DNA from: Eledone cirrhosa
Taxonomy: Eukaryota
Direction: 5' to 3'
Assembly (NCBI GenBank): GCA_964016885.1
Contig: OZ024740.1
Span: 113,708,001 to 113,772,000, forward strand
DNA: 64,000 nucleotides
Both the position numbers and the translations under genes were made by a program. The first letter of the stretch is position 1; each line of letters opens with the position of its first letter. The notes under the pieces are model-generated. The model was not told the DNA's origin. It saw nothing but the letters and a program-made list of their open reading frames with translations, and searched no databases. This document shows, piece by piece, positions 741-64,000 of this stretch.

Positions 741-785
741 AGTCATTGAAGAGGTCACAGAATGTGTGACGAAAGAACTTTGACA
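741..785 (+). ncRNA. Degenerate minimal type I hammerhead motif (PLE family 1 pLTR)
   Basis: AGTCA-TTGAAGA-G-GTCACA-gaatg-TGTGAC-GAAA-GAAC-TT-TGACA. It has C3->T relative to the intact copy at 3296-3340. Confidence 0.55.
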
Positions 786-983
786 ATATATGAACAATCG
801 TCTGGTTGTGGAACCAACCAACCAACCAACCGGAAATTTATAAATTTATAAATTTAATTTATAATAAAATGAAGTGAAAGCAACTAGTGCGTGTGTTTCT
901 TGTTGGCAACATGAGTATGACAATATCGGTTTCAATACACGTTTTCAGATAAAGGATCTTGCTAAACAAATTCAGAAACGAAA

Positions 984-1336
984 TATATATATATATGTAT
1001 ATATATTTATATATGTATATGTATATGTATATATATATATATATATATATATATATATATATATATATATATATATATATATATATATATATATATATAT
1101 ATGTATGTATATAAATATATATATGTATATATATATATATGTATATATATATATATGTATATATATATATATATATATATATATATATATGTATATATAT
1201 ATATATATATATATTTATATATATATATATATATATATATATATATATATATATATATATATATATATGTATGAATATATATATATATATATATATATGT
1301 ATATATATATGTATGTATATATATATATATATATAT
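984..1336. repeat. (TA)n microsatellite; similar tracts at 19-88, 1545-1697, 10011-10060, 35835-35893, 36801-36885, 40809-41023, 48021-48190, 50405-50726, 57170-57290
   Basis: Seen directly; source of the IYIY ORFs. Confidence 0.98.
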
Positions 1337-1338
1337 AA

Positions 1339-1544
1339 AATGGAACGATCGACTTTCGTCAAATCGGACCGAGGGAACACGGTTACCGTTGGTCTTTCCA
1401 ATTGCTAATACTATCTATCGGTCGCAACTCCAGGTAGAAGGAGCAACGTGAAATAAAGTGTCTTGCTCAAGGACATAACGCATCGCCTGGTCCAGGAATC
1501 GAACTCACATCCAATTCTCTAGCCACTCAGCCACACGCCTTCAC
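1339..1544 (-). mobile_element. tRNA-derived SINE (family A)
   Basis: Minus strand reads GTGAAGGCGTGTGGCTGAGTGG (A-box)...GAGTTCGATTCC (B-box)...GTCCTTGAGCAAGACACTTTATTTCACGTTGCTCC; homologous to 2583-2700. Confidence 0.85.
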
Positions 1545-1868
1545 TATATATATATATGTATATATATATATATATATATATGTACATATATATATATATA
1601 TATATATATATATATATATATATATATATATATATGTATATATATATATATATATATATATATATATATATATATATATATATATATATATATATATAGA
1701 ATTAGTATATTTACGAACATATGCGTACAGATGTACACTAATGCTAGCAAATACATAAGTTATGTCATAGTACCTAGGTGGTTCAATGCAGGTGGATGCA
1801 GAACAATTATATGAAAGACGTAAAATAAGAAAAATTTAAAAATTAAAAATTAACTTACTAAAATTTTC

Positions 1869-59696: not shown

Positions 59697-61490
59697 AGTA
59701 TCAACATGAAAATCGGAAGGCAAGGTAAAATTCCAATCATTTAATCACGACATGTTTCAATAAGAGATAGATCGATTGTGAAGCCATGATCGATTATCAC
59801 TCATCTCATCAGGTGCAAAAGAATTGTCTTCAACTGCCAACACAGAACCTCGAAAACCTTCCGCAGGATTTTTGAAAAGTAACCTACCACTAACTCCTCC
59901 CTCTCTACTTTAGCCATAGAGTTCTCTCAATAAACAGACAGTCACACACTCAGATAGTTAGACGGCTAAGATTGTTTGCGAACTTACAAACGATACTCGG
60001 CCTGTTTCCACGGAGTTCTCACAGATGAGTGCATTTTTTTAGAATACCTAGCTAGTAAATAGTTAGATTTATTACACACTTAGAATACCTAGTTAGTAAT
60101 TGATTGCACACTCAGGCATGACCAATTACGCGCACCTACCTTTACTTTAAGATACCCTAACCATTGAGTTCTCTCAGTTGGGATATAGCTGGTCGTATTA
60201 CACTCTTAGTTAGGACCGATTACGCTCTCTATACATAACTCTACACACAGTACCCGTTTCCTTTAGACATTGAGCTCCCAAAATTACGACTGTCACGTTC
60301 CTACCGACTGAACACTACACTAGGTTTTGATCCGTGATCATTTAACCATGGATGACTAACTGTTACGGATTGAACAATATTACTACATACCATTAATGGG
60401 CCTACACACATCCTCTGGATTTTACTACCCTGTTTTTTTACTTCACCTTCTGTGTTGGATAACACACCTCCACCATTCAAACAACTATCTTAAAAGTTCA
60501 TTGGCCCATATGACGGGAATCGCACTTACTGACGCATTTACCCAATACGCAACCCTACACGGAGCACCTTGCTGCCCTTCATTTAGGTTGCTTGCACGCA
60601 CGGATTTGGTGAATCGGATTCTCAATGGGACATACTGAGTTCGATATGAGCTGATTGCTTGCTCTTAACATGGATGTATGTGTACCCAGACATACCCTTT
60701 TTTTGGACGATTCGGATGTGTATATACCATAACATACACTTGAAGATATAGATGTTACAATTCAATCTATACACGTATAGCAGAACACTGAACTGAACTT
60801 ACTTGTTTGTGTGTTAACCCAATATTTCCAATTTACATCGTCAAATTGAGATTTGACTAGTATAGTATCTGTTGTTTTGTGAATTAACTTTCGGTGAATG
60901 CTATGTTGGTACATTCTTATATTTGTTTCCTTATATTTGTTTTTTTCTCTGACATCTCTTCGGTGTGTGTGAGAGTGTGTGTGTACCCACCCACACTAAC
61001 TGTGACCTTGTATAATTCTACAGGTTTGATACTGTGTTGATGTGTGTATATATATATATATATATATATATATATATATATATATATATATATATATATA
61101 TATATATTTCTTTCTTTGACCTCGAGCCGGTGTATATGGGTGTGGAGTGTGTGTGTACCCACTCACATTAACTATATCCCTACAGATTTGATTGATGTCC
61201 AGCGTCTTTTGCAGCGATAGAAATCCGACAACTTTTATGACCTCAACTGAAGTTAATAGCAGTCGCCGTGTCTCTGACTGGTGTGTCTTCATATAAGGGA
61301 ATGAATTCTGTTAGAGAACATCGTTATTTTTTTCTCCCTCATATCAAGAATTTGAAGACAATTCATTTTCACCTGATGAGATCAGTGATAATCGATCATG
61401 GTTTCACAATCGATCTATCTCTTATTTAAACATGTGTCGTGATTAAATGATTGGAATTTTACCTTGCCTTCGGATTTTCATTTTGATATA
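59697..61490 (+). mobile_element. ~1.8-kb non-coding element bounded by ~135-bp inverted repeats, each containing a hammerhead motif (non-autonomous PLE-like)
   Basis: ~59699-59833 is the reverse complement of ~61352-61489. Confidence 0.72.
59746..59815 (-). ncRNA. Type I hammerhead motif
   Basis: CAC-CTGATGA-GATGAG-tGATAatcgat...atcgatcTATC-t-CTTATT-GAAA-CATG-TC-GTG; palindromic ACATGT. The plus copy at 61370-61441 has GAAA->TAAA. Confidence 0.72.
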
Positions 61491-62049
61491 TATATATATA
61501 TATATACACACAAGCACACTTAGCAGAAAATATCCACAACACACATAGATATTGTAATGCTGTATTCGATTGTTTGACGTCACTTATTATAATTTCATTC
61601 AACAAGACCACAAGCTCTCTCTCTCTCTCTCTCTCTTTCTCTCTCTCTTTCTCTTACTCTCTCTCTTACCCTCTCTCTTCCATTTTTCTTCTCTTTCTCA
61701 TTCTCTCTATTTCTCTATGTCTCTCTTTCAACCTATTCTCTCATAACCACTATCTATTTATCTGTATTTTTCTTTCTCTCTATTCATGAAGTTACCCGAA
61801 AAAATTCCGTATCTCGGAACCCGTCACTCCATTCAACACCACCACACCACAACCACCCTCCACCACCACCATCCACCACCACCCTCCACTACCACATACT
61901 TTAAACTCCTGTAAAATAATTTAACAAAAGCCTTCCACCGAAAAAAAGAAAGATTTCCCCCACACCCCAGGGGTTCAACATGTGGGGAGGGGATGGAGAA
62001 CCCTGTTGTTCTTTACAGAAGAGGAAAACGTTTGTGGTTTCTAAGTAAA

Positions 62050-63530
62050 AAAATATTGTTGTGGGATATAGAGAGGGAGAAAGAATTTAGTGCTCTAGTG
62101 AGAGGGGGAAATGTGAGAGAGAGTGAGGTATGTAGTGGGATATAGACAGTGGGGAGCATTTGTTGGTTTAGTGAGAGGGTATTGTGAAAGTGAGAGAAAG
62201 TGAGGTATGTAGTGGAATATTGGAGGGTGAGAGAATTTGTTGGTCTAGTGAGAGAGGGAGAATTGTGAGAGAGAGAGATTGAGATATGTAATGGAATATA
62301 GAGAGCTGGAGAGAGTTTGTTGGTTTAGTTAAAGAAGTAATTAAGAGAGTGAAAGAGAGTGAGGTATGCAGTGGGATATAGAGAAGGGAGAGAAATTGGT
62401 TGTCTAGTCAGAGAGGGGGGATTGTGAGCGAGTGTAAGGTATGAAGTGGGTTATAGAGAGAGGGAGACAGTTTATTTGCCTAGTGAGAAAGGGAGTATTG
62501 TGAGAGTGAATATAGAGAGTTGAATATAGAGAGGGTAAGAGAATTTGGTGGTCTGGTGATAGAGGGGGAATTGTTAGCAAGAGTGTGATATATGTGGTGG
62601 AATATAGAGAGCGGGAAGGGGTTTCTTGAAGTGGTTAGATAGGGGAAATTAAGAGAATGAAAGAGATTGAGTTATGTAGTGGAATATAGTGGGAGTGGAC
62701 ATATTTTGGAGGTCTAGTGAGAGAGGGGGAATTATGAGAGAAAGTGAGCTATGTAGTGAGGTATTAAGCGAAAGAGAGACAGTTTGTTGTTTTAGTGAGA
62801 GAAGGGGGAATTGTTAGAGAGATTCAGGTATGCAGTGAGCTTAGAGAGAAGAAGTGAATTCGGCGGTCTATTAAGAGAGGGGGAATTGCGAGAGAGGGTG
62901 AGATATAGTTATGTAGTTGGATAGAGAGAGAGAGGGGGGGGGGGGCGTTTGTTGGTCTAATGAGAGACGAGAAGTAAAAAATGAGTAGAGTGAGGTATGT
63001 ATTGGAATATAGAGAGCGGGAGAGTATTTGCCGGTTTAGTGAAATAGAATGAGATATGTAGTGGAATATAGAGAAGGTGAGAGCATTTTGTAGTCTAGTG
63101 AGAGAGAAGGTATTTTGTGACTGAGAGAGAGTGAGGTGGGTAGTGGGATATAGAGTGCGGGAGAATGTTTGTTGGTTTAGTGAGAGAGGGGGAATTGTGA
63201 GAATGATGGAGAGTGATGTATGTATTGGTAATAGAGAGGGAGAGAAATTTTCGTGGTTTAATGAGAAAGGGGGAATTGTGAGAGTGACAGAAAGTGGCGT
63301 AAGCAGTGGGATATAGAAAGAGGGAGAGTGTTTTGTGGTTTAGTGAATGGGAATCGTGAGAGTGAGGTATGTAGTCAGATATATCAGATGGTGGGAGAGA
63401 GTTTGATGGATAATGATAGAGTGGGAGTACTGATCTAGTGAGAGTGAGTGAGGTATGTAGCGTTATGTAGAGAGGGTGAGAAAAGTATAATGTTTTAGTG
63501 AGAGAGGGGTAATAATTTGAGAGAGATTGA
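62050..63530. repeat. Diverged GA-rich minisatellite, ~70-77-bp unit, roughly 20 units
   Basis: Recurrent TTTGTTGGT(T/C)TAGTGAGAGAGGGGGAATTGTGAGAGAGAGTGAGGTATGTAGTGG(G/A)ATATAGAGAGGG. Confidence 0.88.
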
Positions 63531-63869
63531 CAAAAGTATTGTAGAAGGGAAGAATGTTTTAATATTGGGTTTCACGGTAAAGTGGCTCTGTATATGAGTG
63601 TGTGTGTTTATATGTATAGGTGTGTATGTGTTTATATGTATAGGTGTGTGTTTGTTTATATATATATGTGCGTGGTTGTATGTTTCAATATATATGAGAG
63701 TGTGTGTTGTTTATATGTGTGTGTGTTTATATATATTTGTGTGTTCATTTCACCAGCAGGCTCTCTCATTAATAGTATCAACTGGAACATTCGTCGTCGT
63801 AACCGTGTATGTGTGTGTGTGTGTGTGTATGTGTGTGTGTGTGTGTGTGTGTGTATGTATGTGTTTGTC

Positions 63870-64000
63870 GGGTTCAATCGGGGGTAACCACAGTAAGTAA
63901 GGTACTCCATACATAGGCAGAGTATAAATATTTATAAGTAATACATATTTATATGGTTTGTACAGGACTAGAACTGTTTCATTCGGGAAAAATCTTCAGG
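63870..64000 (-). mobile_element. Second copy of the 39679-39886 family with hammerhead core, truncated by the window end
   Basis: Minus strand reads CTGAAGA-tttTTCccGAAt-GAAA-CAG-ttctagtc-CTG-TA-CAAACC; shared GGTAACCACAGTAAGTAAGGTACTC tail. Confidence 0.72.

Follow-up and report, generated by a model that had tools for sequence, protein, structure and literature searches.

Hammerhead ribozyme motifs occur throughout a 64-kb stretch of the Eledone cirrhosa genome (contig OZ024740.1, here C1, positions 113,708,001-113,772,000; hereafter the window) in the 2.996-Gb assembly GCA_964016885.1. [quoted passage not shown] The motifs were likely placed at (TA)n when the elements inserted themselves by target-primed reverse transcription, and are predicted from sequence to cleave mainly as dimers or with the help of protein. 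We assign this reading a probability of about 0.87. The motifs are likely of use to the transposons and not to the host. At least 198,000 hammerhead motifs are present in the ~3 Gb of the genome, and the window contains about twice the average. Elements of this kind are already known, including their palindromic stem III and the dimer model; the genome-wide scale and a family with a variant core, family C, appear to be new here.

A sequence-only reading of the window had proposed about 20 hammerhead motifs from at least 10 unrelated families. We read its 24 sites individually for the core and the stems. Each of the 24 sites contains a type I hammerhead fold, in complete or damaged form, and together they belong to 11 families (A-K). 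The proposed unrelatedness holds at the DNA level only, and several families encode related Hydra-type proteins. Sixteen sites (1869, 2402, 3296, 11518, 12701, 36133, 36667, 38098, 38334, 39766, 39821, 48497, 49111, 49582, 50053 and 59746) are intact with the canonical C3-G8 core, seven on the plus strand and nine on the minus strand. Seven others (741, 2864, 5016, 9902, 37928, 61370 and 63955) are damaged copies of real families, and the remaining one (35770) is a complete fold carrying the family-wide substitution U4A. Outside family C, the core follows CUGANGA...GAAA...UH or contains a compensated U3-A8 pair; intact copies of family D, which has the U3-A8 core, are found in locus L148. Three stems surround the core and show covariation, with formal pair counting confined to family I. 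Two copies had been missed, a third family C copy at 45917 and a damaged copy of a 12th family at 40092 (40089..40132, plus strand, A14C).

The motifs are well separated from background. In the window, a strict type I descriptor matches 10 times; across 200 local dinucleotide shuffles it averages 0.02. An energy-scored scanner finds 14 matches, compared to a mean of 0.20 and a maximum of 2 in 30 shuffles. The comparison with shuffled sequence, proposed earlier as a check on these motifs, is therefore in their favor. The claim that almost all of them lie at (TA)n is also borne out, with a (TA)5 run at most 200 bp away from 23 of the 24 sites, compared to 36% of random positions. For family J and site 3296, the nearest (TA)5 run is internal to the element.

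Families A, C, D, F and K, together with H and I at one locus each, are the 3' ends of PLEs, mostly of the Hydra type, that end at (TA)n. In all of them an open reading frame (ORF) with reverse transcriptase (RT) and GIY-YIG-type endonuclease (EN) is located upstream of the hammerhead. Within the window, a PLE ORF is found upstream on the same strand for families A and D. The intact family A hammerhead (3296..3340, minus strand) has a non-palindromic stem III, AGGACT. It is preceded by a 5'-truncated PLE ORF (3558..4853, minus strand) that contains the end of the RT and the EN, with a CX4CxxC linker of the Neptune/Nematis type. The best match of this ORF is an Octopus vulgaris RT protein, at 62% identity. 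The damaged family A copy (742..784, plus strand, C3U) is downstream of a C-terminal fragment of a PLE EN (211..531, plus strand; tblastn E=3e-18). In the family A element, a near-perfect 112-bp inverted repeat centered on (TA)n (4852-4963) occupies the 5' end and drives false microRNA matches. The two family D hammerheads have the U3-A8 core and flank a frameshifted RT-EN ORF of a Hydra-type PLE (6577..8679, plus strand). One of them (5016..5109, minus strand, with the lesion G12A) is in an inverted arm of the element, and the other (9902..9995, plus strand) has a 6-bp stem III and a mismatch in stem I. An inverted EN fragment of the same element is located at 6289..6498 (minus strand). Pfam gave no match on the PLE fragments of the window.

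Loci elsewhere in the genome connect additional families to Hydra-type ENs encoded upstream on the same strand. In family F, the EN ends ~840 bp upstream of the hammerhead at 10 of 15 loci. Its window copy (12701..12836, minus strand) is intact, with a 99-nt stem II and ACGATCGT as stem III. In family K, the EN is 1.5-1.7 kb upstream at 5 of 15 loci; the window contains an intact copy with a 3-bp stem I (59746..59815, minus strand) and a copy with the lesion G12U (61369..61442, plus strand). In family C, the EN is ~980 bp upstream at 5 of 30 loci and at 5 of 7 long loci. The EN is also upstream at one of three family H loci and at the single family I locus. The family H copy in the window (38333..38385, minus strand) is intact, and its stem III is ATATGTAT. 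An abundant family with ATGCGCAT as stem III contains an 821-codon open Hydra-type PLE frame between inverted hammerheads (L276:1329-3791). With 14 query proteins, PLE-ORF-like sequence makes up 3.7% of 1.17 Mb of random 10-kb loci.

The arrangement of the copies also points to PLEs. At (TA)n, the families terminate in one or two fixed 3' ends, and their 5' ends are ragged. As in PLEs, the copies show 5' truncation, inverted arms and an optional tail, which gives two 3' ends. Same-family neighbors within 3 kb are head-to-head in 19 of 30 cases, convergent in 2 and tandem in 9. The fixed 3' ends, ragged 5' ends and head-to-head neighbors match the PLE layout and the (TA)n insertion reported for the Hydra clade (Craig et al. 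2021, PMC8557442), as well as the two reverse-transcription start sites reported for a PLE (PMC11167929). Similar to that clade, the elements encode RT followed by EN with DKT and CxCX5C, carry hammerheads, insert at (TA)n, and contain pseudo-long terminal repeats (pLTRs) and inverted 5'-truncated arms. The diagnostics given for the clade are RWK, DKT and CxCX5C (PMC8557442), and the elements here differ in having RWR. Protein P0139 of family C contains RWR, DKT and CxCX5C, and protein P0140 contains RWT, DKT and CxCX5C. For the clade, 21 Repbase families and a few more have been described (PMC8557442); judged by its motifs, it appears to account for several of the families that are most abundant here.

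The motifs resemble the metazoan PLE hammerheads described by Cervera and de la Pena 2014 (PMC4209133). Both are of type I with a short self-complementary stem III, and are located in pLTRs. Both form many heterogeneous families per genome, mostly as single dispersed copies, with opposite-strand pairs 100-700 bp apart and a U3-A8 variant. Unlike those hammerheads, several families here have a stem II of 50-100 nt or a stem III of 4-6 bp, and family C has a fixed U4A. Thousands of motifs per genome were reported in that study (~9,000 in Xenopus tropicalis), compared to at least 198,430 here.

We propose that the EN would nick (TA)n, and that reverse transcription would begin just 3' of the ribozyme. 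Nearly every truncated insertion, even a short one, would then retain the ribozyme, and inversions would double it. The high motif density may thus arise because the ribozyme is near the 3' end where copying starts. Cleavage would likely process the element's own tandem transcripts, whereas most of the dispersed single copies are likely inert passengers.

Several observations weigh against this reading. The long loci of families C (5 of 7), H (1 of 3) and I (1 of 1) were hand-picked as inverted or spaced pairs. Families E and G gave one weak PLE-ORF match in 24 loci with 1.5-kb flanks. The window contains an intact family E copy with a minimal stem III, ACGT (11518..11553, minus strand), a family E copy with damaged stems I and III (37928..37963, minus strand), and an intact family G copy with ACATATGT as stem III (38097..38190, plus strand). 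A PLE ORF is found within 800 bp upstream of 3 of 114 random matches, compared to a background of 2.7%. This test is uninformative because the 3' regions are longer (0.8-2.7 kb) and the elements are truncated at the 5' end, an explanation reached only afterwards. In addition, family C was amplified with a non-consensus core, and cleavage may therefore not be needed.

Families B and J are retrozyme-like. Both consist of non-coding tandem repeats in which each unit contains one type I hammerhead, the hallmark of retrozymes without long terminal repeats (non-LTR retrozymes). Like the latter (Cervera and de la Pena 2020, PMC7229834; bioRxiv 10.64898/2026.07.22.740005), they are low in GC and form dimers to long arrays. 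Their units (533-550 bp in B and 471 bp in J) are larger than the 150-450 bp first described (PMC7229834), and are inside the range of 51-972 bp given in the 2026 preprint (bioRxiv 10.64898/2026.07.22.740005). Family B contributes two pairs of intact hammerheads to the window, at 1869..1950 and 2402..2483 (minus strand; stem III ACTAATTAGT, 533-bp tandem unit) and at 36133..36213 and 36667..36745 (plus strand). The family J array (48970..50406, plus strand) consists of 3.1 units, and contains intact hammerheads at 49111-49155, 49582-49626 and 50053-50097 (plus strand) with ACTAGT as stem III. Another family J hammerhead (48497..48541, minus strand) is in an inverted arm of the array. Contig C5 contains 13 family J units. 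The unit is also found in runs X4-X6, labelled as three other organisms (word share 0.53-0.61), which may represent relatives, diet or contamination. A separate array at C1:5738327-5752443 has ~30 units of 466 bp in tandem; they carry an ACTAGT hammerhead with a stem II unlike that of family J.

The hammerhead density of the window had been described as exceptional. We compared it with 117 random 10-kb stretches taken at round coordinates across large contigs, and found that the window is only moderately enriched and not exceptional within this genome. The sampled stretches contain 114 consensus-core matches, compared to 3, 6 and 7 in three shuffles. Extrapolation gives ~278,000 (201,000-358,000) motifs genome-wide, or 6.2 per 64 kb. 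With 14 matches, the window has ~2.2 times the mean of the sample. The bootstrap P of 0.04 assumes that blocks are independent and does not account for the selection of this window. Three tandem insertions account for 8 of the 14. The sample-based estimate is low, as family C and almost the whole of family I escape the scanner. A scan of random loci for the U3-A8 core was noisy (25 matches, compared to 8-9 in shuffles) and was left out of the genome estimate.

Three mutually exclusive exact patterns were also run on the whole genome. They check the core and the beginning of stem III rather than every stem, and gave 106,574, 72,275 and 19,581 matches, or 198,430 in total. Their reversed-pattern controls gave 152, 57 and 0, or 209 in total. 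The exact patterns predict 4.2 matches per 64 kb, and the window has 9. Genome-wide, the motifs are spaced about one per 11-15 kb. With this spacing, the genome is well suited to the question of whether hosts remove sense-strand ribozymes from introns. The largest published count that we found is 126,247 motifs in the axolotl (PMC7229834), the genome of which is given as 28 Gb (bioRxiv 10.64898/2026.07.22.740005). The two genomes are alike in their very high copy numbers and in a U-U mismatch at the base of stem II, found here in families C, I and J. They differ in that E. cirrhosa exceeds the axolotl in motifs with about a tenth as much DNA, an approximate comparison between different descriptors, and has at least 24 families compared to the two groups reported in the axolotl (PMC7229834). 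Our literature searches found no paper on cephalopod hammerheads. The words 'ribozyme' and 'hammerhead' are absent from the main text of a repeat annotation of Octopus vulgaris from 2026 (PMC13282606).

Several sequence comparisons point to selection on the fold. In family I, stem I contains 10 doubly changed cells, a number reached in 0 of 500 shuffles (relatedness not controlled); stems II and III have no double change. The window contains two intact family I copies with a weak 3-bp stem II, arranged head-to-head at 39766..39814 (minus strand) and 39819..39871 (plus strand), and a copy with a mutated stem I that continues past the window edge (63955..64000, minus strand). The C3-G8 and U3-A8 cores co-occur within one cluster. 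In run X1, five differences are listed inside the motif among variants of family J, and none of them strikes a conserved core base.

Family C departs from the consensus core at position 4. Apart from this position the core is complete, and the three stems are all there, stem I with 5 bp, stem II with 3 bp and stem III with 5 bp; the triplet is CUU. It folds as a monomer three-way junction with an unconstrained minimum free energy of -8.1 kcal/mol. This complete hammerhead fold rules out that family C is a non-hammerhead palindromic element. The window contains a complete fold with A4 (35771..35822, plus strand), a U4A copy that has lost stem I at an inversion junction (2863..2914, minus strand), and the third copy, with U4A and C3G (45917..45968, minus strand). 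A pattern allowing A or U at position 4 has 15,385 exact matches in the genome. A is present in 15,324 of them and U in 61, a level compatible with mutation after insertion. At locus L290, arranged pLTR-ORF-pLTR, both pLTRs carry the U4A motif, and the ORF is a 645-codon open frame with RWR, DKT and CxCX5C. Of 23 copies selected with an upstream anchor, A4 is found in 21. Variants shared by three or more of these copies are absent from all 51 fold columns, whereas the flank just upstream has subfamily differences.

The U4A core raises the possibility that the fold is kept as a structural signal, for protein binding or for the start of reverse transcription, with catalysis dispensable and the ribozymes carried as passengers. 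The near-fixation of A4 and its presence in both pLTRs of L290 are consistent with this. So is the report that catalytic mutants left insertion in vitro unchanged and that no RNA reads ended at the cut site (PMC11167929), as is the success of Naiads, which thrive without canonical hammerheads (PMC8557442). However, the ten other families in the window keep the consensus or the compensated U3-A8 core, and the fold columns of family C are free of shared variants. In addition, U4C is a known viroid variant that is slow in vitro and yet sufficient in vivo (PMC3088659). U4A is absent from the main text of that paper, and a full-text literature search for it found nothing relevant. On balance, we consider a purely structural role possible but not probable. 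A broader statement would be that the genome carries more than 200,000 hammerheads, largely on Hydra-type PLEs and above any count found in print. Family C would then be an autonomous PLE with more than 15,000 copies of a catalytically impaired U4A hammerhead whose fold is fixed, and PLEs would retain the fold as a signal, structural or protein-binding, and not as a cutter. Taken as a whole, this statement is tentative, and we hold it with low confidence. The role of hammerheads for PLEs is described as unresolved in two papers (PMC8557442, PMC7761336). Family C could serve as a natural test of the importance of cleavage for Penelope transposition. A single cleavage assay would distinguish the main models, because family C is a protein-coding element with a naturally altered core, in a genome that also has ten families with a consensus core.

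Hammerhead numbering and dimer geometry are used here in their standard form. In a hammerhead dimer, the strands of stem I are exchanged between the partners, as are those of stem III. We compared 24 families in 552 ordered pairs, dropping satellite cluster 12, the single-locus clusters 14 and 15, and most singletons. Based on nearest-neighbor energies, the stem III hairpin of the monomer has a positive free energy in 21 of the 24 families, and families D and I can form monomer hairpins. The stem III self-dimer has a negative free energy in all 24. The short self-complementary stem III that is unstable in the monomer, typical of PLE hammerheads, is therefore observed here. A self-complementary stem III and the dimer model were already presented in PMC4209133, and palindromes were surveyed in the legend of Fig. 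S8 of PMC3088659. Minimal PLE hammerheads were reported not to cleave as monomers and to be weak as dimers (PMC4209133). Cleavage by a PLE hammerhead was reported to require the PLE protein, and was not required for insertion in vitro (PMC11167929).

The palindromes in stem III had also been interpreted as a family-specific dimerization code. The pairing of a self-complementary stem III in the dimer is retained from this proposal, but a code selected to prevent cross-family dimer cleavage is improbable. Stem III is incompatible in 523 of the 552 pairs, as a code would predict; however, random palindromes are pairwise incompatible anyway. Stem III is compatible in 29 pairs, stem I in 25, and both in 9. 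Stem III alone blocks 16 pairs in which stem I fits, for example between two families that have the same stem I but, by compensatory change, ATATATAT in one and ATGCGCAT in the other as stem III. Stem I alone blocks 20, and discriminates equally well. Among the 21 short-stem families, 15 unordered pairs are compatible, compared to 2.6 +/- 1.5 (maximum 8) in 60 draws of random palindromes with the same length and composition; this sharing may reflect common descent. ATATATAT is the stem III of 4 of the 24 families, and ACTAGT is found in at least two families with different stem II. Stem III is a perfect palindrome in 14 families and deviates from one in the other 10. These comparisons, uncorrected for common descent, indicate that the palindromes provide incidental specificity, and they give no sign of diversifying selection. 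In the transposon-based reading, stem III would stay self-complementary for dimer pairing and would drift by compensatory change along with stem I.

Alternatively, host pre-mRNA could be the target, with the motifs cutting introns of either polarity. Intact motifs are present on both strands, and for the tandem pairs of family B and the three tandem motifs of family J a partner on the same strand is available in cis. Depletion of retrozymes from Xenopus introns has been reported (bioRxiv 10.64898/2026.07.22.740005). However, we found no host exon in the window, where 52 of 59 non-repeat ORFs were scanned with one sub-threshold Pfam match, a scan that would miss short exons. The published inactivity of minimal PLE hammerheads as monomers and their weakness as dimers (PMC4209133) also argue against cutting of host transcripts, and inverted partners would form long duplexes. 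A role in host pre-mRNA is therefore very unlikely.

Chance matches in AT-rich repetitive DNA are refuted by the shuffled and reversed-pattern controls and by the recurrence of families with compensatory changes, even though relaxed scans give ~9 false matches per shuffled window at low score and the Rfam matches listed (150 of 152 at E<=1) include no hammerhead, being instead microRNA-type models on (TA)n hairpins.

Additional repeats are found in the window. An inverted pair at 45226 (minus strand) and 45410 (plus strand) has CUGACGA and a possible stem I, lacks the stem II-GAAA portion, and was not counted as a hammerhead. One further copy of this sequence is present in locus L034. An ORF at 10723-11175 (plus strand) has no Pfam match; from a motif recognized by eye, it resembles a fragment of a Tc1/mariner transposase. 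Three decayed non-LTR elements of the long interspersed nuclear element (LINE) type, with RT and apurinic endonuclease (APE) regions matching Pfam RVT_1 and Exo_endo_phos, are located at 21959-23942, 28355-30342 and 32567-33692. A GA-rich minisatellite with 77-82-bp units and strong GC skew occupies 62057-63346.

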